The translations under genes and the position numbers were made by a program. The notes below the pieces were generated by a model. That model searched no databases. It had not been told where the DNA came from and saw only the letters and a list, made by a program, of their open reading frames with translations. From Escherichia coli (GTDB lineage: Bacteria; Pseudomonadota; Gammaproteobacteria; Enterobacterales; Enterobacteriaceae), in assembly GCF_050920415.1 (NCBI RefSeq), contig NZ_CP169309.1: a stretch of 64,000 nt of DNA, one strand, 5' to 3'. Positions 2,993 through 59,089 of this stretch are shown in pieces (within the stretch, counting starts at the first letter, position 1; each line of letters starts with the position of its first letter).

Positions 2993-3294
2993 GAAAAGCT
3001 GAAGGGCGTCAACCGAAAAATGACCAATGATGGTGAGGAAAAATCAGGGAAGATGAAAAAAATTCATCTTAATTAGAGGTAATAAATAGATTTCTTTATA
3101 GCGCAATCAACCTCACTCGTTTTGACTGATATACAGGCAACACAACGGCACCTGTTTCTCATTCGAAAAACAACGCCCTGCCACCAGATGGTGATGCTAA
3201 AGCATCTGATTCGGCCTGCGCTCTCGTGTAGGCCGAATACAGAATCTGCGAAATCAACGGGTAACAAACAGCAGAGTCAACTCAGTGCGTACTT

Positions 3295-4850
3295 TTATTT
3301 AATATCTTTCACGCGCATACCGTTGATCTGTTCATCCGTGATGGTATTACCCGCTTTAAAGTAATCAACCACCGCGTGATAAACGTAATAACCGCCCGTC
3401 GTATTGCGCGCTTTACCCTCGGTAAACGCGGTAAAACCATCTCCACCATCAGCAAGGAAACTCTGAGTGGCAATGTGGTAAACCGTCGCATCTTCAATCG
3501 GTTTGCCATTCAAAGTCAGTGAGATAACCCGCTGACCAACCGGCTTGCTGCTGTCGTACTTCATTTCCAGGCCTTTCGATACCTGTAAAACGCCATTACT
3601 TAAACTTGCGCCGTGTTCCATCAAACTGCGTAATTGTTTACCCGTGAGATCCATCGTCACCAGTTCGTTGGGGAACGGGAAGGTACTGATGACGCCACCC
3701 ATCGTAATTGCACCCGCCGGGATCTCATTGCGAATCCCGCCAGAGTTGGTTAACGCCAACTGGGTATTTTTACCCGCCGCTGCCAGCAAAGCGTCCGCCG
3801 CCAGGTTCCCGAGGGAAGCCGATTCACCATAGGCACGTTTTAATTCAACCGGCGATTGCGCCACCGTTTGCTGACTTCATCCAGCTTTTTGTTCCAACTA
3901 TCAATCACCTGTTTCGTTTGCGGATCGGGCTTCCACTCATCGGCGTAAAGGGTTTTAAGCTCGAAGTTTTTCACCGTAAAAGTGTGCGGCTTCTCTTTGT
4001 AGTCGAGAACCAGTTTACCCACATCAATCCCGCCGCTGTCAGTGGAGAGGATTAACGTATTGCCGACTTTAATCGGTTCCGGCGTACCCACATGTGCATG
4101 CCCGGTGATCAAAATATCCAGCCCTTTCACCTGACTTGCCGTCTGAATATCTTTATCCAGCGCGCGACGCACATCTGTGCCTCCCATACTGGACTGGCGG
4201 GCCGGAACACCTTCGTGGATCAGGGCAACGGTCAAATCAACCTTGCCTTTGAGTTCATCGATATAACGTTGTAGCCATTTAATTTCATCACGCGCCTCAA
4301 TACCCACTCGCGTTGCCGCAGATACCGTATCATTAAAGGCAAATACACCGTGCAAACCAATCACGCCAATTTTCACGCCGTCTTTTTCAATGATGGTATA
4401 GGGCTTATCCCAGAATGATTTACTGCTGTTCTGATAAAAAACATTACCCTGCACAATCGGGAATTTTGCCTGACTCAGCTGTAATAACGTATTGTCCCAG
4501 CCGTGATCAAATTCATGATTACCTATAGTGACCGCATCGAACGGCATGGTATTCATAATATCGATAATCGCCTTGCCTTTAGTCAGGCTGCTGATATACG
4601 GCCCGGTAAAATAGTCACCCGCATCAAAAAACCAGGTCGCTTTGTTTTTAGCTTTTTCTTGTTTAACAAGCGTAGTGATATTTGCCCAGCCGCCAATATC
4701 TCGTTTACCGTCAGCAATCCACGGCACTTTATAAGGCTCTACATGTGCATGGAGGTCGTTGGTATAAATGATGGTGACATCTTTGGCGCAAGCCCAAAAC
4801 GGCAGTGTTAATGCGATACCCGCAGCAAGCATTTTAATTTTCATAAACAA
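3295..4850 (-). pseudogene. 5'-nucleotidase / metallophosphatase family paralog disrupted by a frameshift
   Basis: Two overlapping minus-strand ORFs in different frames (3840-4850, 336 aa; 3295-3864, 189 aa). Together they align end to end with the intact paralog at 7922-9547 (N-part ...[15 protein letters not shown]; C-part [19 protein letters not shown]...). The frame break is near 3850-3865. Metallophosphatase motifs DxH, GDxxxG and GNHE are present. Confidence 0.75.
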
Positions 4851-4893
4851 TCCCTTCCAGTGAGATAAAGGATTGCTACATTACGTTCTGAAA

Positions 4894-4909
4894 GGCTTTT
4901 TTATGTGAG
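4894..4909. promoter_or_regulatory. perfect-consensus CRP-type site TGTGA-N6-TCACA in a divergent promoter region
   Basis: Sequence tTGTGAgaatacTCACAt sits between the divergent starts at 4850 (minus) and 4977 (plus). Both half-sites match the CRP consensus exactly. Confidence 0.55.
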
Positions 4910-4976
4910 AATACTCACATCCAGAGGCGATAACTGTAGGACAAAATCAACGACCTTATGAAATCGTTGGTGATAT

Positions 4977-6104
4977 ATGTCAAATCTGTTTGCGATTAAT
5001 GTCTGTAAAACGTTCGGTTGTCGAAATTTGGGATTGGCCTCATCGGAAGATTACAGTTGGCCAGACTATAAACTGGGTTTTCCGGCACTACACTGCCAGG
5101 CATGCGGAAGTTACCCCCCTTTGTTTGATGAACAACAATTTCGTGACTGGTTGTCAGTTCACATGACTACGTGTGCCATAGAAACAGGGCATTTTTGTCC
5201 ATCATGCTATTGTAAAGAAAAGATTTTTTATGGCCACAACCCGCAGGGAACACAACGCGTTCAATGCCGTTCATGCAAAAAAGTCTGGACTCCGAAACAG
5301 CAGCCAGCAAGAGAAATTACGTATCCCCAGTCCATTGAAACCGTTCAACTGTTCATGCCCTTTCAAGGAGCCAGCGCACTACAAAAGCTCTATGTTTTAG
5401 TCAGTCTTGACGCCACTCGTGGCAACATCCTTCATCTCTCCACGAATTATACGCAACATCAGACAGGAGACAGTCTGCGGTACAGTTACAGAGGCAATAC
5501 AGAACCAACTGAGCACCATAGCGATATTGTGCAGAGGGTAGATATGCGTGAAGCGCAATTCTTGCGCCGGAGCCAGTTCGATGAAATTCAGTATGGCAGT
5601 GCTGTGCTCAAGCGCAATGGCAAGGGAGCCATACTACGCCCGGTTATCACGGCACACGGGCATTTCAGAATACTGAAAATCCGCTTTCCACATGTCAAAA
5701 CGCATATCATTTCACACGAATGTTTTCTGAGAGGCGCAATTATTACAGCCTGGGCAGATCAGTTCCGCCAACAACAAGGCGAACTTTGGTTCGTAGAAGA
5801 AGAAATCAGCGACCGTAACGCTGATATTCCCTGGCATTTTCAGGGAACGACATACCATGGTTGGTGGCAAAATCAGTGGCAACGCTGGGGGCAGGGGAAT
5901 AACAGCAAGATGGTCTGCCTGCTCACAGGAGTCTCCTTAGAAAGGGGCGCAAATGTTTCTCTGGCAACCAGTCGTTGCTTTATCACATGGCTGACAGACC
6001 AACACGACTTTACCCAAAGCGCGTTATTATCCGCAGGTCGCGTAACGAAAATGCTGACCTCACTGGCGTTAAAATACAATGAATCGCTCAATCCATCTTG
6101 TTAG
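4977..6104 (+). CDS. hypothetical cysteine-rich protein (multiple CxxC pairs, possible zinc-ribbon N-terminus); function unknown
   Basis: 375-aa ORF with no signal peptide. N-terminal 100 residues carry C10/C15, C40/C43, C74/C77/C79 and C97/C100 (HCQACGS..., CPSCYC..., CRSCKKVW). The C-terminal part is Trp-rich. I do not recognise the family. Confidence 0.65.
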   Translation: MSNLFAINVCKTFGCRNLGLASSEDYSWPDYKLGFPALHCQACGSYPPLFDEQQFRDWLSVHMTTCAIETGHFCPSCYCKEKIFYGHNPQGTQRVQCRSCKKVWTPKQQPAREITYPQSIETVQLFMPFQGASALQKLYVLVSLDATRGNILHLSTNYTQHQTGDSLRYSYRGNTEPTEHHSDIVQRVDMREAQFLRRSQFDEIQYGSAVLKRNGKGAILRPVITAHGHFRILKIRFPHVKTHIISHECFLRGAIITAWADQFRQQQGELWFVEEEISDRNADIPWHFQGTTYHGWWQNQWQRWGQGNNSKMVCLLTGVSLERGANVSLATSRCFITWLTDQHDFTQSALLSAGRVTKMLTSLALKYNESLNPSC

Positions 6105-6222
6105 TCAATACACTCGACAAACGACCATAAATTAATGGGATCACTATTTCTCATTTAATTAAATATATGAATGTATGACTGAAAAATATAATCACAGTCA
6201 ATGTTTAATTAATAACATTATT

Positions 6223-6238
6223 TGTTACTAAGATCACA
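6223..6238. promoter_or_regulatory. CRP-like site (TGTTA-N6-TCACA, one mismatch) upstream of the nucleotidase/tsx-like gene set
   Basis: tTGTTActaagaTCACAt lies about 95 bp upstream of the 6334 start in an AT-rich 229-bp leader. Confidence 0.3.
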
Positions 6239-6333
6239 TAATACTTTCCTGACCTATGCTTACATAAAAATAAGACACGGAGTTCCTTTTATTTAAATAA
6301 TTCAACCAATGTAACAACCCCTATCAAGGAGGG

Positions 6334-7887
6334 ATGATGAGAACTGTATTTACGACTTTATCAGTCATATTCAGCGTGATGTTTTCTCACAGTATACTAG
6401 CTCAGGACGTTACTATTTATTATACGAATGATATTCACGCACATGTCAATCCGGCAAAAATTCCCGCTGTTGATAAGAACAGACTTGTAGGTGGTATGGC
6501 TAATATCGCAGGCATCGTTAATGAAGCGAAGAAAAAAAACAAAGATGTCTTTTTCTTTGATGCAGGCGACTATTTTACCGGTCCGTATATCAGTACCCTG
6601 ACCAAAGGTGAAGCTATTATTGATATCATGAACACCATGCCCTTTGATGCGGTGTCCGTTGGTAATCACGAGTTCGATCACGGCGTGCCCAATATGGTAT
6701 CTCAGTTATCAAAAGCAAAATTCCCCATTCTGCTGGGAAATATTTACTACACCGATACAAATAAACCAGTTTGGGATCATCCGTGGACCATTATCGAAAA
6801 AGATGGTTTAAAGATTGGTGTGATTGGATTGCATGGTGCATTCGCTTTCTATGATACAGTCGCGGCAAAAGCACGTGAAGGCGTAGAAGCCAGAGACGAA
6901 ATTAAATATTTAAATAAAGCACTTGCAGAATTAAAAGGTAAAGTCGACATTACCGTTTTGCTAATTCACGAAGGTGTTCCGGCGCGTCAATCAAGCTTTG
7001 GTAGTAAAGATGTGGAGCGGCTACTACAGGCAGATATTGAGACAGCTAAAAAAGTGAATGGTGTTGATGTCTTAATTACCGGTCACGCACATGTCGGAAC
7101 ACCGCAACCAATAAAAGTTAATAACACATTAATTGTATCTACCGATGCATACGGCACCGACATCGGAAAACTTGTGCTTGATTACAATCCGAAAACAAAG
7201 AAAATTGATAGTTATAATGGTGAGTTAATCACCATCTTTGCAGATCAATTTAAACCTGACACCATCGTTCAAAATACTATCGATAAATGGAGCGTAAAAC
7301 TTAACAAAATAACACAGGAAGTTGTCGGCCATTCTCCCGTAGTTTTAACACGTGAGTATGGCAGTTCTTCTTCTACCGGTAACCTTATTCTGGATGCAAT
7401 GATGGAAAAAACACCTGATGCCATTGCCGGATTTCAAAATAGCGGTGGGATGCGAGCTGATTTTCCTAAAGGTGATATCACACTGGGAGATGTTATTAGC
7501 ACATTCCCCTTTAATAATGACCTCATCGAGATGGATTTGACGGGCCGCGATCTCAAATCGTTGATGACGCATGCAACCAATCTAACTAACGGTGTGTTAC
7601 AGGTTTCAAAAAGCGTTGCGGTTGTCTATGACAGCAAAAAACCACTCAACCAACGGTTAATCTCTTTCACCATTAACGGCAAACCCGTGGAAGATAATCA
7701 AACATATCGTATTGCCACGCACTCCTTTTGTGCCAGTGGTGGTGACGGTTTTGAAGCATTTTTGAATGGAAAAAATGTGAAGACGATACCGGGAACAACC
7801 TCGGCGGAATCAATCATCGATTATTTCAAAAATCATAAACCTGTCACCCCAGACTTAACTAAACGAGTCATGGACGTCGCCAAATAA
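6334..7887 (+). CDS. periplasmic bifunctional metallophosphatase / 5'-nucleotidase family protein (UshA-like)
   Basis: 517-aa ORF with a signal peptide (MMRTVFTTLSVIFSVMFSHSILA|QD), metallophosphatase motifs (TNDIHAH, FDAGDYFTG, GNHEFD) and a 5'-nucleotidase-type C-terminal domain. Strong Shine-Dalgarno (aaggaggg) precedes the start. Confidence 0.85.
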   Translation: MMRTVFTTLSVIFSVMFSHSILAQDVTIYYTNDIHAHVNPAKIPAVDKNRLVGGMANIAGIVNEAKKKNKDVFFFDAGDYFTGPYISTLTKGEAIIDIMNTMPFDAVSVGNHEFDHGVPNMVSQLSKAKFPILLGNIYYTDTNKPVWDHPWTIIEKDGLKIGVIGLHGAFAFYDTVAAKAREGVEARDEIKYLNKALAELKGKVDITVLLIHEGVPARQSSFGSKDVERLLQADIETAKKVNGVDVLITGHAHVGTPQPIKVNNTLIVSTDAYGTDIGKLVLDYNPKTKKIDSYNGELITIFADQFKPDTIVQNTIDKWSVKLNKITQEVVGHSPVVLTREYGSSSSTGNLILDAMMEKTPDAIAGFQNSGGMRADFPKGDITLGDVISTFPFNNDLIEMDLTGRDLKSLMTHATNLTNGVLQVSKSVAVVYDSKKPLNQRLISFTINGKPVEDNQTYRIATHSFCASGGDGFEAFLNGKNVKTIPGTTSAESIIDYFKNHKPVTPDLTKRVMDVAK

Positions 7888-7921
7888 AATATCATTTATC
7901 AGTCTATATATTTAACAAGGA

Positions 7922-9547
7922 ATGCGAATGAAAACAGTGCAGCGTACTTTACTTGCCGCAACATTGCTGACTATTTTTTCGGTCTCAGTCATGGCGCAGG
8001 ATGGCACGATTATTTATACAAATGATCTTCACACTCATGTGGATTCTTATAAAGTGCCGTATATCGCAGACGGAAAACGCGACATTGGCGGCTTTGCCAA
8101 TATATCTACTTTAGTAAAACAAGAGAAAGCGAAAAATAAAGCCACCTTTTATTTTGATGCTGGAGACTATTTCACCGGCCCTTATATCAGCAGTCTGACA
8201 AAGGGCGAAGCAATAATTGACATTATGAATACCATGCCTTTTGACGCAGTATCAATCGGCAATCATGAGTTTGACCATGGCTGGGATAATGCCCTGCGAC
8301 AATTAAGCAAAGCGAATTTTCCTGTTTTATTGGGCAATGTTTATCATAAAGAGAGTGAGAAACCCTTCTGGAACAAGCCCTACACCATCCTGGAAAAAGA
8401 TGGCATCAAGATTGGTATTATTGGGCTACACGGCGTATTTGCATTTAATGATACGGTCTCGGAGCTCTCTCTCCAGGGACTCGATAATGACAATAATAAC
8501 CGCTTTGATAAATCTTCCGAGACCCTTAAGAATCAGGGGATTGAAGCACGTGATGAAGTGAAGTATTTGCAGCATTATATCGACGAGTTACGTGATAAGG
8601 TTGACCTCACTGTGGCGCTGGTTCATGAAGGCGTTCCGGCGCGTCAGTCCAGCATTGGCAATACAGATGTTAGACGCGCTCTTGATAAAGATATTCAAAC
8701 CGCTAGCAAGGTGAAAGGATTGGATATTCTGATTACCGGGCATGCCCACGTCGGAACGCCAGAACCAATCAAAGTCGGCAACACCTTAATCCTTTCGACT
8801 GATAGTGGCGGTATCGATATTGGTAAATTAGTCCTTGATGTCAACCCTACAGCTCGTACCCATAAAATGAAGAGCTTTGAGCTGAAAACAGTTTATGCCG
8901 ATGAATGGATACCCGATCCAACGACACAAAAAGTTATCAATGGCTGGAATAAAAAACTGGCGGATATTGTACGCCAACCAGTGGGTGAATCATCGATTGT
9001 ATTAACTCGCGCCTATGGTGAGTCATCGCAACTAGGCAACCTGTTTACCGATGCAATGCTTGTCGCTGCTCCGACTGCACAGATTGCATTGATAAACTCC
9101 GGCAGCTTACGTGCGGATATAAATGCAGGCACGATTACCTTTGGCGACATTACCAGTACATTCCCCTTCAAGAATGAACTTACTGAAATGGATCTCAGCG
9201 GTAAGGATCTGCGTAACCTACTGGAACACGGGGCATCGCTTACCAATGGCATCCTGCAAATGTCAAAAGGCGCAGAAATGCGCTATACCCCGCAGAAACC
9301 AGTAGGTCAGCGCATAGTATCTTTTAAAATTAATGGTGAAGAGATCGTTGATACGAATATTTACCATGTTGCAACAACGACTTTCCTTGCACTGGGGGGC
9401 GATGGTTTTCTGGCATTCAAAGAAGGGAAAAATGTTCAGGTCCGCGCCAGAAATAACATGTCCGATGTCGTGATCGATTATTTGAAGAAAGGCCACAAGA
9501 TTACGCCTGCACAGGTAAATGAAATGCGGGTGGACGTTAGCAAATAA
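7922..9547 (+). CDS. periplasmic bifunctional metallophosphatase / 5'-nucleotidase family protein, second paralog
   Basis: 541-aa ORF with a signal peptide (…VSVMA|QDG) and the same motif set. It is about 80% identical by eye to the frameshifted copy at 3295-4850 and carries an extra low-complexity insert (LQGLDNDNNNRFDKSSETLKNQ). Confidence 0.85.
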   Translation: MRMKTVQRTLLAATLLTIFSVSVMAQDGTIIYTNDLHTHVDSYKVPYIADGKRDIGGFANISTLVKQEKAKNKATFYFDAGDYFTGPYISSLTKGEAIIDIMNTMPFDAVSIGNHEFDHGWDNALRQLSKANFPVLLGNVYHKESEKPFWNKPYTILEKDGIKIGIIGLHGVFAFNDTVSELSLQGLDNDNNNRFDKSSETLKNQGIEARDEVKYLQHYIDELRDKVDLTVALVHEGVPARQSSIGNTDVRRALDKDIQTASKVKGLDILITGHAHVGTPEPIKVGNTLILSTDSGGIDIGKLVLDVNPTARTHKMKSFELKTVYADEWIPDPTTQKVINGWNKKLADIVRQPVGESSIVLTRAYGESSQLGNLFTDAMLVAAPTAQIALINSGSLRADINAGTITFGDITSTFPFKNELTEMDLSGKDLRNLLEHGASLTNGILQMSKGAEMRYTPQKPVGQRIVSFKINGEEIVDTNIYHVATTTFLALGGDGFLAFKEGKNVQVRARNNMSDVVIDYLKKGHKITPAQVNEMRVDVSK

Positions 9548-9557
9548 TAAAAAATTA

Positions 9558-9592
9558 TAATGCCATTCATTCACTGAATGGCATTATTTTTC
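9558..9592 (+). terminator. rho-independent terminator-like hairpin after the second nucleotidase gene
   Basis: Inverted repeat aatgccattca / tgaatggcatt with loop ttcac, followed by a T-run (tattttt). Confidence 0.55.
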
Positions 9593-9624
9593 TCTAAATC
9601 AACAATAAATAATGAGATATATTT

Positions 9625-10485
9625 ATGTGTATAAAAAAGCACGGGATAGCTTTATCGATTCTATTAATACCTTGCATTGGAAACGCTCAGGAAATTAAAA
9701 GTGAGGAAGGCTGGTTACATCAAAGCTTGAATGTCATTGGTCGCACAGACTCTCGCTTTGGCCCAAGGCTGACTAACGACCTCTACCCTGAATATACTGT
9801 AGCAGGAAGAAAAGACTGGTTTGATTTTTATGGTTATGTTGATCTACCAAAATTCTTTGGCGTCGGCAGTCACTATGATGTTGGGATCTGGGATGAGGGC
9901 TCACCACTATTTACGGAAATAGAACCTCGGTTTTCCATTGACAAATTGACCGGATTAAATCTTGCGTTCGGCCCTTTTAAAGAATGGTTCATTGCAAACA
10001 ACTATGTCTATGATATGGGTGACAACCAGTCATCCCGGCAAAGTACATGGTATATGGGGCTTGGTACAGATATCGACACGGGTCTACCAATTAAGCTTTC
10101 TGCCAATATATACACCAAGTATCAGTGGCAAAACTATGGTGCCGCTAATGAAAATGAATGGGACGGATATCGATTCAAAATAAAATATAGCATTCCTCTT
10201 ACCCATTTATTCGGAGGGCGATTGGTATACAATAGTTTTACTAACTTTGATTTTGGCTCCGATCTTGCGGACAAATCACACAATAATAAACGAACCAGTA
10301 ATGCTATTGCTTCAAGCCATATCCTTTCCCTGCTATATGAACACTGGAAATTTGCATTTACACTACGTTATTTTCACAACGGTGGACAATGGAATGCTGG
10401 GGAGAAAGTTAACTTCGGAGATGGTCCATTTGAATTAAAAAACACAGGATGGGGAACCTATACTACTATTGGTTATCAATTTTAA
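9625..10485 (+). CDS. Tsx-family outer-membrane nucleoside-specific channel paralog
   Basis: 286-aa ORF with a signal peptide (…IGNA|QE). It shares long blocks with E. coli Tsx as I remember it ([90 protein letters not shown]) and ends in an aromatic residue. Confidence 0.85.
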
Positions 10486-10630
10486 ATCAGGTGATGTTTT
10501 AGATATTTTTACTTAATGCCATTTTGTAATTGTCATAAATAACTTCACCATTCACACTGTGAATTCATCGCTCAACACAAAAGCCCCTTATTACCGGGGC
10601 ACTGACCAAAGGCAAAATGACAATCAATCA

Positions 10631-10688
10631 CCACCTCCGCAGGAGGTGGTTTAGAGGTGACAACAAAAGCTGGCAACTGCCAGCTTTT
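10631..10688. terminator. two adjacent hairpins forming a probable bidirectional terminator between the tsx-like gene and metL
   Basis: ccacctccgcaggaggtgg (10631-10649) and aaaagctggcaactgccagctttt (10665-10688). On the minus strand the second is a GC stem followed by a T-run immediately after the metL stop. Confidence 0.55.
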
Positions 10689-10700
10689 GTTCAATAATCA

Positions 10701-13133
10701 CTACAACAACTGCGCCAGACGGTTAATATCCGACTGAATCGCCCCGGCGGTGACGTCGCGCCCTGCACCTGGCCCGCGGATCACCAGCGGGTTGTCGCGA
10801 TACCAGCGGCTTTCGATGGCAAAGACGTTATCGCACGGTAGTAGTGATGCCAGCGGATGGTCTTCTCGCACCGCTTCCACGCCTACTCGCGCTTTGCCGT
10901 TGGCATCGAAACGCGCCACGTAGCGCAACACCAGCCCCATTTCACGGGCCGCTTCCAACCGTTGTACCATCTGCTCATTAAGTTCATCGCCATTTTCAAA
11001 GAAATGGTCGATGCTTCCACCTTCGCAATGGGTTGGCACCAGTGATTCAACACGCACCTGGTCCGGTTCAATGTTGTAACCCGCTTCACGCGCCAGAATC
11101 ACCAGCTTGCGCATCACGTCTTTGCCGGAGAGGTCATCACGCGGGTCAGGTTCAGTTAAGCCCTGCTGCCACGCCTGATCCACCAGCTCGGTAAACGGCA
11201 CGCTACCGTCGAATTGCAGGAACAGCCAGGAGAGTGTGCCGGAGAAGATCCCGCTGATCGACAAAATAGTGTCGCCGCTGTCGATCAGATCGCGCACGGT
11301 ATGGTTGATCGGCAAACCTGCGCCGACGGTGGCGTTGTATAGCCAGTGACGCCCGGTTTTTTCGAACGCGTCGTGGATCTGGCGATATTTATTGCTGTCG
11401 CTCGCTCCCGCCAGTTTGTTGGCACTGATGACGTGGAAACCGTGGCTGGCGAAATCGAGGTATTGATCGGCCAGTTGCTGACTGGCGGTAACGTCCAGCA
11501 CCACTAAATCATCATACGGATGGGCACGCATCCACAGGAACAGCGACTCTTCATCCTGTTCGACGGCTTCATCATTAAAGAAGGCTAGCGCACGGCTGGC
11601 GTCCAGCCCGTCATAGCTCAACAGGCTGCGACGGCTGTCCACCACGCCTGCCAGCACAAATTCAAAGCCGGTGCGCGCCGAGAGCGTGCTCTGCTCACGG
11701 GCGAACAGTTCCAGCCAGCGGGAACCGATATTGCCCTTACCGAACAATACCAGGCCGATGCGTTTTTCTGCGCGGAAGACGGACTGATGCAGCCCCTGAA
11801 TCAGGCTTTCGGTCGGCCCGGTGCGCAGTACTGCCACCAGGCTGATGCCGTCATCGGACTGCCAGGTAAACTCGACCGGCTGGCCTTTCAGTTGCTGCCA
11901 GAAGCGGTGGCAATGCAGCGGGTTACGGGTGACGCCCGCCCCAACCATCGCCACCAGCGCCAGCCCCTGACGCAGGCGCAGTTCGCCAGGTAATCCTGCT
12001 TCGTCGAGGATTTTCAGCGCACTGTCGGCCACTTCCGAGGTGTAGCAAAATTGCAGCAACTGGCGATCGTTATGCACGCCAACCGCCAGTGGGCGCACCT
12101 GAGCACGTTTCAGGATTTGGTCGATCTCTTTATGCGCCAGTTTGAAATCCTGACTGGCGGGCACCTGAAACTCAATCAAACAGACATCATCGTGGCTGGT
12201 GACAATACGCGCGCCCGTACCGGAAGCCAGCACGCGTTCAATGCGCGTGGAACCTTGATCCGGTGTATAGCTACAGCGCAGCTGCAGGTCGATTTCACTG
12301 CCAGAAACTGGCTGTAAAGTACGCGCGTGCAACACTGGCGCGGCAAGACGCGCCAGTTCGCTGGCTTCATCAAGACGCAGCAATGGCAGCAGACAGGCAT
12401 CTTTCACTTTACGCGGGTCGGCGCTATATACCCCGGCGACGTCACTCCAGATGGTTACGCGGGAAACTCCCGCCAGCGCACCGATTTGTGTCGCGGAATA
12501 GTCGGAACCGTTACGCCCCAGCAGCACCGTTTCACCGGCGTTGTTACGGCTGATAAACCCGGTCACCACCAGACGTTTGCCCGGATGTTGTACCAGTAGC
12601 TGTTGCAGCAACGGGTAAGAAAGCCCTTCATCAACCTGCGGCTGCGCGGCGCGTTCAGCGCGTAAAAACTCGCGGGCATCAAGCCAGGCCGCTGGCAATC
12701 CTTGTTGATTAAGTACCGCAGACATCAGGCGCGCCGACCACACTTCACCGTGGCCCACCACTTCCGCATACACCGCATCGTTAATACCGCTGTCGAGCAG
12801 CGCCGCCAGGCGTTCCAGATCGCTGACAAAAGCGCTAATGAGGCTATCGGCTTCTTCAGCGGGTAGCAGGCCGCTAATCAGATCGCACTGATAACGACGT
12901 AGCGTTTGTTGAACCTGATGCGCAGAGAGACGATCGGTCTGGCTTAGTTTCAACCAGTTAATCAACTGGTTAGTGGTGCTACCGGCGGCGGAAACCACCA
13001 TCATATCGTCAGGCTGAGAGTACTCCGCCATAATGCCCGCGACACGCAAATAACACTTCACATCAGCCAGACTACTGCCACCAAATTTATGCAGTTGACG
13101 ACCTTTCGCCCCTGCCTGCGCAATCACACTCAT
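10701..13133 (-). CDS. metL: bifunctional aspartokinase II / homoserine dehydrogenase II
   Basis: 810-aa ORF MSVIAQAGAKGRQLHKFGGSSLADVKCYLRVAGIMAEYS... recognised as MetL. Confidence 0.96.
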   Translation of the reverse strand: MSVIAQAGAKGRQLHKFGGSSLADVKCYLRVAGIMAEYSQPDDMMVVSAAGSTTNQLINWLKLSQTDRLSAHQVQQTLRRYQCDLISGLLPAEEADSLISAFVSDLERLAALLDSGINDAVYAEVVGHGEVWSARLMSAVLNQQGLPAAWLDAREFLRAERAAQPQVDEGLSYPLLQQLLVQHPGKRLVVTGFISRNNAGETVLLGRNGSDYSATQIGALAGVSRVTIWSDVAGVYSADPRKVKDACLLPLLRLDEASELARLAAPVLHARTLQPVSGSEIDLQLRCSYTPDQGSTRIERVLASGTGARIVTSHDDVCLIEFQVPASQDFKLAHKEIDQILKRAQVRPLAVGVHNDRQLLQFCYTSEVADSALKILDEAGLPGELRLRQGLALVAMVGAGVTRNPLHCHRFWQQLKGQPVEFTWQSDDGISLVAVLRTGPTESLIQGLHQSVFRAEKRIGLVLFGKGNIGSRWLELFAREQSTLSARTGFEFVLAGVVDSRRSLLSYDGLDASRALAFFNDEAVEQDEESLFLWMRAHPYDDLVVLDVTASQQLADQYLDFASHGFHVISANKLAGASDSNKYRQIHDAFEKTGRHWLYNATVGAGLPINHTVRDLIDSGDTILSISGIFSGTLSWLFLQFDGSVPFTELVDQAWQQGLTEPDPRDDLSGKDVMRKLVILAREAGYNIEPDQVRVESLVPTHCEGGSIDHFFENGDELNEQMVQRLEAAREMGLVLRYVARFDANGKARVGVEAVREDHPLASLLPCDNVFAIESRWYRDNPLVIRGPGAGRDVTAGAIQSDINRLAQLL

Positions 13134-58255: not shown

Positions 58256-59089
58256 TTAATTACTCAAACGCTGCGGATGGGTATAAACCGTTGCCCGACC
58301 CGGCTTACAAAAGCCCACCAGCGTCAAATTACAGCGCTCAGCCACTTCTACGGCAAGCGTGGTCGCGGCAGACACCGCAAACAAAATTTCTACGCCGCAC
58401 ATCGCTGACTTTTGCACCATTTCATAACTGGCACGACTGGAAACCAGCACCGCACCTTGCTGCCAGCTTTCCCCTTCTTGTGACCGGCGGCCTAACAGTT
58501 TATCCAGCGCCACATGGCGACCCACGTCTTCATGCCCGCCTACCAGTTCGCCAGATGGCAACATCCAGGCAGCGGCGTGAGTACAACCAGTCAGTTGCCC
58601 CACTGGCTGGAAATCATTGAGATGGCGTAATGCATCATCCAGTTTGTTGAGATCAAATGTCTGAGTGAACGGCAGCGGCTGCACCGGTTTACCGATGTCA
58701 TTAAGTTGCTCCACGCCGCACACGCCACATCCCGTACGTCCCGCCAGTGCCCGACGACGCTCCTTCAACCCCATAAAGCGGCGGCTGGAAAGCTCAATTT
58801 GCACTTCCAGACCATTACAGGAAGGAACGACATCCATACCGAAGATATCGCGCGGACTTTCGATAATCCCCTCGGAAAGCGAAAAACCGAGCGCAAAGTA
58901 TTCAAGGTCTTTGGGCGACGCCATCATCACCACATGCGAAATGCCGTTGTAGACCAGCGCAACGGGAACCTCTTCCGCCACCTCATCTAACCGTGGGTGT
59001 TGTAAATCGTCACGCCGCCATAACTCAATTTGACGAACACCTGTGACATTTGTCACATTTTTGATTTCTTTTTGCTGTGTTTTTTTCAC
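58256..59089 (-). CDS. fdhD: formate dehydrogenase sulfurtransferase / accessory protein FdhD
   Basis: 277-aa [52 protein letters not shown]... recognised as FdhD. Confidence 0.95.

Follow-up and report, generated by a model that had tools for sequence, protein, structure and literature searches.

A 64,000-nucleotide stretch of the Escherichia coli contig NZ_CP169309.1 (hereafter the window) carries, between the minus-strand genes metF (2021-2911) and metL (10701-13133), a low-GC segment of ~7.6 kb that would constitute an accessory nucleotide-scavenging set inserted at this chromosomal site. It contains three paralogous genes for predicted periplasmic 5'-nucleotidases, which we designate A (3295-4844, minus strand), B (6337-7887, plus strand) and C (7928-9547, plus strand). 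We conclude with high confidence that A was lost in one clone of E. coli through a 4-bp deletion of GTGC, which most likely left it null for nucleotidase function, and that this loss is connected neither with the age of the paralogues nor with an inversion of the locus.

In the window A is distributed over two overlapping open reading frames (ORFs) on the minus strand. The upstream ORF (3840-4844) encodes 334 residues, comprising a putative signal peptide and the metallophosphatase domain (residues 1-324) followed by ten out-of-frame residues and a stop codon at 3840-3842. The downstream ORF (3295-3864) lies in the -1 frame, starts with GTG and encodes a 189-residue substrate-binding domain without a signal peptide. 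The original prediction took the two to be one nucleotidase gene split by a frameshift, and this was borne out: in colinear order, the minus-strand ORF at 3840-4850 aligns with residues 10-352, and that at 3295-3864 with residues 354-537, of the protein encoded on the plus strand at 7922-9547 (E-values of 0 and 4e-69 for the N and C parts, respectively). The start annotated by the Prokaryotic Genome Annotation Pipeline (PGAP) is the ATG at 4844 and not the TTG at 4850.

Alignment to the intact alleles of four other strains defined the lesion. At the break the intact alleles read GAAGTC[GTGC]AGCAAACGG on the gene strand, whereas the window reads GAAGTC^AGCAAACGG across a junction at 3872/3873, so that codon V325 and one base of Q326 are removed. 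The frameshift is thus real but sits slightly upstream of the position near 3850-3865 at which it had been placed. The two frames overlap over 37 nt (3840-3876), the downstream frame being open from 3876. Restoring GTGC yielded a 517-residue ORF with no further stop, corresponding to the intact allele of 1,554 bp, and the deletion is therefore the sole lesion in A. The recommended comparison with orthologous loci of other strains recovered intact A in loci L002-L007. Colinear homology across the break, intact alleles in relatives and the recurrence of the lesion in independent assemblies identify A as an ordinary, clone-specific frameshift pseudogene, and it is already annotated as such in RefSeq.

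Intact A contains the Pfam domains Metallophos (PF00149) at residues 24-252 and 5_nucleotid_C (PF02872) at residues 334-477, which places the break in the interdomain linker. In intact alleles both domains are part of the same polypeptide, whereas in the window 5_nucleotid_C is separated from the catalytic domain. Translation would end after 324 native and 10 foreign residues, leaving the C domain stranded in another frame without a signal peptide. Work on UshA and CpdB has established a strict dependence of nucleotidase activity on the joint action of the native N and C domains (PMC8071527). Since activity in this family requires both native domains in one polypeptide, the window allele is most likely null for nucleotidase function. 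Its loss may be tolerated thanks to the intact B and C genes and the neighbouring tsx gene.

Several considerations weigh against so simple a loss. The assignment as null is drawn from sequence and from analogy with other family members, the redundancy of A with B and C is an assumption, and the support for the lesion comes from assemblies. Moreover, the putative signal peptide and the complete set of metal ligands are still present in the N fragment, and by analogy there is a small chance that this fragment retains some phosphodiesterase activity, so that the term null is limited to nucleotidase function. It is conceivable, though in our judgement unlikely, that the split gene is still useful, either because the secreted N domain acts as a phosphodiesterase or because -1 ribosomal frameshifting provides some full-length enzyme. 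The first variant draws on the presence of every dimetal motif in the 334-residue fragment and on the isolated CpdB N domain, which still hydrolyses 2',3'-cyclic nucleotides and bis-4-nitrophenylphosphate (bis-4-NPP) (PMC7922932); on the other hand, a truncated enzyme with a ten-residue nonsense tail may be unstable, and nucleotidase activity itself would be forfeited given the strict requirement for the native domain pair. For the second variant, a -1 shift does lead into the downstream frame, but no slippery heptamer of the form X XXY YYZ was found in the 37-nt overlap zone, which makes programmed -1 frameshifting unlikely. An AAAAAG located further upstream precedes a TGA in the -1 frame, and programmed frameshifting was accordingly rejected. 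Independent translation of the C fragment would have to begin at a GTG that lacks a good Shine-Dalgarno sequence and would deliver a protein without a signal peptide. We therefore retain the reading of A as a pseudogene that has most likely lost its nucleotidase function.

The spread of the deletion was examined in a population scan of 5,426 complete E. coli genomes using a 52-mer centred on the junction and built so that each 28-mer seed spans it. One genome matched, NZ_CP169399.1 (strain MFDS1022581), in which PGAP marks the gene as "frameshifted". In a large protein collection the exact 334-residue product was present on 62 contigs and the exact 189-residue product on 66. The carrier contigs stem from independent projects and platforms, reach back to drafts of 2011 and include E. 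coli M863, 1.2741, GCA_000194175.2, GCA_036681285.1 and the Logan assembly of SRR19902547. M863 has been placed in Escherichia clade I (PMC4182557). Four fetched loci (L001, L008, L009 and L010) shared the identical junction, and over 7 kb the carriers differ from the window by zero to one single-nucleotide polymorphism and one T-run indel. Because the deletion is 4 bp long, lies outside any homopolymer and turned up in independent projects, we regard it as a genuine mutation that is fixed in a single tight clone. The frameshift arose recently and is private to this near-clonal lineage.

A sequencing or assembly artefact, with A intact in the organism, had been allowed for as an alternative to pseudogenisation. 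It could appeal to the junction being found in just one complete genome, and to the window's one-T homopolymer difference at 3155 as a sign that this assembly may contain small indel errors. The 4-bp deletion, however, sits in no homopolymer, the same junction occurs in the four fetched loci, and the exact N and C products on 62 and 66 contigs come from independent projects, including a Logan assembly made from raw reads. On these grounds we ruled out sequencing error as the cause, and an artefact appears very improbable. The homopolymer difference itself is non-coding and located between metF and A, where the window reads TTT and four of four other carriers, NZ_CP169399.1 among them, read TT; it is either a private indel or an assembly error.

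The pseudogene and its plus-strand relative had been described as an inverted pair of about 80% protein identity, produced by duplication and subsequent decay. The locus in fact contains three paralogues, and all are far more divergent than this. A and C share 66% protein identity overall, the N part reaching 71% and the C part 55%; when the two copies were aligned at the DNA level, as had been advised, they were 67% identical, with a longest exact run of 17 nt and a best block of 75% identity over 461 bp. The A-B pair is 59.5% identical in DNA (longest exact run 17 nt) and 58% in protein, and the B-C pair 59% (14 nt) and 54%, respectively. While the pseudogene stands, its supposed history of duplication and decay does not: with 54-66% protein and 59-67% DNA identity the paralogues are ancient.

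B (516 residues, PGAP WP_001261171.1) and C (539 residues, PGAP WP_001355354.1) are intact. Together with the intact alleles of A they share the UshA/CD73-type architecture of a calcineurin-like metallophosphatase followed by a 5'-nucleotidase C-terminal domain. The motifs NDLHAH, DAGDYF, GNHEFD, IHEG and GHAH, which correspond to the dimetal motifs DxH, GD, GNHE, H and GHxH, are invariant in the three proteins. Each protein begins with a hydrophobic, signal-like sequence, the endings read among the three being ACA/KD, LA/QD and MA/QD, and would be exported to the periplasm. C additionally carries an insertion of ~20 residues (LSLQGLDNDNNNRFDKSSETLK; about 8460-8530 in the window, alignment columns 182-201) in the metallophosphatase domain that is without counterpart in A and B.

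Orthologues of A that are 90% identical occur in Citrobacter freundii and Enterobacter hormaechei. That of C. freundii occupies the same metF-metL site, whereas that of E. hormaechei lies at a different site, together with a tsx gene and a second nucleotidase 72% identical to B. The 90% cluster of A also holds proteins of E. fergusonii, E. albertii, Kluyvera and Salmonella. Since other genera possess their own counterparts of A and, at lower identity, of B, the duplications long predate Escherichia. The ratio of non-synonymous to synonymous substitution rates (dN/dS) of intact A between strains is 0.02-0.12. A is thus under strong purifying selection, the conserved member of the set and not its expendable copy. 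At synonymous sites of A the window lineage has diverged strongly from B2 strains (synonymous divergence, dS, about 0.32), and the whole locus is only 94.7% identical to the B2 alleles; either a long-standing polymorphism or independent acquisitions might account for this. A possible gene conversion of A by its paralogues was considered when queries matched two places in B2 strains, but found no support when the second place, in strain 536, proved to be a 75%-identity cross-match between A and B.

The arrangement of A and C as inverted homologues around the Cys-rich gene (4977-6104) and B had led to the suggestion that they are inverted duplicates, one of them decayed, through which the intervening segment could be inverted. 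For RecA-dependent recombination, identical stretches of at least about 25 nt are required. Judged by this general minimum, A and C are poor substrates for homologous recombination, given their 67% identity and longest identical run of 17 nt. A query for the inverted state, in which the reverse complement of 4860-6330 was joined to 9548-10690, reached at least 80% coverage in none of the 5,426 complete genomes. The colinear query was covered to 100% in 658, with the next value in the sampled ranking at 36%. All 658 locus-bearing genomes are hence colinear and none is inverted, and the postulated inversion polymorphism of 4850-7922 was dismissed. About 1,170 genomes possess A but lack C, and those of them that were examined have an intact A. 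Recent duplication was likewise rejected in view of the 67% DNA identity and the separate orthologues in other genera, which for A, and less closely for B, make the duplication older than those genera. The chance that an invertible pair of recent duplicates underlies the locus is negligible.

The variable segment (3067-10700) extends from the metF promoter region to the metL stop codon. Homology to the K-12 intergenic region ends at window position 3066 and restarts at 10702, at the metL stop, and the GC content of the segment is 0.35-0.52 versus about 0.55-0.60 in its flanks. The gene order is A (minus), the Cys-rich ORF (plus), B (plus), C (plus), a hairpin and the gene for a Tsx-family channel (plus). 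Such a set would couple periplasmic dephosphorylation of nucleotides to the passage of nucleosides across the outer membrane. The locus itself has already been published as GR 31, metL..metF (PMC12928451).

Three states of the site were apparent among the complete genomes, besides a few remnants. The long, full form is that of the 658 genomes recovered by the colinear query, about 100 of them being at least 95% identical to the window and about 557, such as strain 536, about 94.7% identical. A short form with only A and the Cys-rich gene occurs in about 1,170, among them ST131; the Cys-rich gene of this form departs from the window sequence past position 5896 and overlaps the metL stop with its 3' end. 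The remaining genomes are empty at the site, like K-12. Of the few genomes with remnants, NZ_AP027877.1 has A reduced to 495 bp and the Cys-rich gene to 201 bp; this decayed remnant adjoins malI and phosphotransferase system (PTS) genes.

The tsx gene (9625-10485, plus strand) encodes an intact outer-membrane nucleoside channel of 286 residues, which scored 489.9 against NCBIfam NF011686 over residues 2-286, above the cutoff of 311. Several RefSeq records (L001, L003, L004 and L005) carry the PGAP label "incomplete; missing C-terminus" for this gene. We rejected the possibility of a pseudogene, as the ORF runs its full length to a terminal GYQF, and the tsx of L003 is identical to the L002 allele annotated as intact; the label looks like an annotation artefact. 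Between C and tsx lies a near-perfect hairpin (9557-9587; ATAATGCCATTCA…TGAATGGCATTAT), whose stem measures 13 bp and which has T-runs on both strands. It resembles a terminator acting in both directions, suggesting that tsx is a separate transcription unit.

Divergent from A, the plus-strand Cys-rich gene (4977-6104) encodes a 375-residue protein with two zinc ribbons and a putative RNase-H-like core resembling that of IS1 transposase; we consider the protein a candidate regulator of the adjacent scavenging genes. Searches of the protein against Pfam returned no domain above threshold and a weak InsA zinc-ribbon match alone. The family is conserved across Enterobacteriaceae, with 122 representatives at the 50% identity level, and has eight nearly invariant cysteines (C10, C15, C40, C43, C74, C77, C97 and C100). 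Its second ribbon matches Zn_ribbon_InsA in 8 of 58 members, with a best E-value of 1.4e-7. Profile matches of the family to C2H2 zinc-finger arrays in the PDB were dismissed as an effect of Cys periodicity.

The resemblance to IS1 is confined in extent. Against the NCBIfam model transpos_IS1 (NF033558) the protein scored 19.6 bits, with a cutoff of 100, and only in the zinc ribbon. The acidic columns D145, D202 and E248 are only 76-98% D/E in the family. Unlike IS1, the Cys-rich gene occurs as a single copy and keeps its synteny from one genus to another, its partner gene and the intergenic region being conserved as well. It matched one to two places per E. coli genome, the second place in strain 536 being the cross-match between A and B noted above and not a second copy. 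In C. freundii it keeps the metF-metL site.

Members of the Cys-rich family, even at an identity as low as 29%, divergently adjoin nucleotide or nucleoside scavenging genes in seven of the eight contexts that were examined. These partners are 5'-nucleotidases, a deoB-deoD-nupG-like operon for a phosphopentomutase-like protein, a purine nucleoside phosphorylase (PNP) and a nucleoside:H+ symporter, or a cluster of porin, class-B acid phosphatase and PDEase_II genes. The pairing suggests a dedicated regulator or functional partner. The 132-bp intergenic region between A and the Cys-rich gene (4845-4976, unstranded) contains palindromes and is conserved across genera, with a mean column identity of 88% across E. 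coli, C. freundii and E. hormaechei. Within it lies a perfect but putative CRP-type core, TGTGA-N6-TCACA (TGTGAGAATACTCACA; 4904-4919, unstranded). The window as a whole contains two such perfect cores versus 0.02 expected.

From these features we propose tentatively, and as a possibility that is on balance doubtful, that the Cys-rich protein is a domesticated derivative of an IS1-family transposase that may be dedicated to controlling, possibly with the help of CRP, the transcription of genes for extracytoplasmic nucleotide and nucleoside scavenging. If true, it would be a rare bacterial case of a domesticated transposase turned regulator. Further sites were seen in the window: another palindrome, CAACGACC..AAATCGTTG, at 4948-4969, a one-mismatch CRP-type core TGTTACTAAGATCACA at 6223-6238, about 100 bp upstream of B, and the other perfect core, TGTGACATTTGTCACA, at 59042-59057, far outside the locus.

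The pseudogene itself is of little weight, being the recent loss of a single gene in one clone, with two intact paralogues beside it and a flag in RefSeq. What has been gained are corrections, namely that the paralogues are ancient, that the lesion is real and that the inverted copies are no inversion switch. The lead on the Cys-rich regulator is the sole forward-looking value of the analysis.

Comparison with characterized proteins places A more precisely. The E. coli "Nucleotidase" deposited as PDB 3IVD/3IVE is the same protein as A: intact A aligned to 3IVD with 1114 bits over residues 19-517, and the N fragment of the window over residues 3-310 of the chain with about 98% identity and 689 bits. 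The crystallised 3IVD is full length and comprises both domains, whereas in the window the 4-bp deletion truncates the protein at residue 324. Nothing relevant on "c4898" or "3IVD" was found in the literature. UshA of K-12 (PDB 1USH) shares with A, B and C the two-domain architecture, the metal motifs and a predicted periplasmic signal peptide. The three are nevertheless not UshA orthologues: they scored 154.5, 165.5 and 151.2 bits against NF007109, which has a cutoff of 600, and the phmmer match to 1USH was weak (E-value 1.5e-23).

Isolated domains and chimeras of CpdB and UshA provide an experimental precedent for separating the N and C domains, which abolished nucleotidase activity and left the N domain with some phosphodiesterase activity (PMC7922932, PMC8071527). 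Those engineered constructs were made from other members of the family, whereas the truncation in the window is natural, carries a ten-residue nonsense tail and is known here from its sequence. The closest parallel to the locus as a whole is GR 31 of the avian pathogenic E. coli (APEC) strain BEN2908 and of model extraintestinal pathogenic E. coli (ExPEC) strains (PMC12928451). GR 31 agrees with the window in site, gene set and gene lengths, with a tsx gene of 861 bp and three UshA-like genes of 1620, 1551 and 1554 bp (PMC12928451). Its authors interpret GR 31 as a coordinated nucleotide-processing system, and the Cys-rich gene goes undiscussed in the available portions on GR 31 (PMC12928451). 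In the strains described there the 1554-bp gene is intact, whereas its counterpart in the window, A, measures 1550 bp and is frameshifted (PMC12928451).

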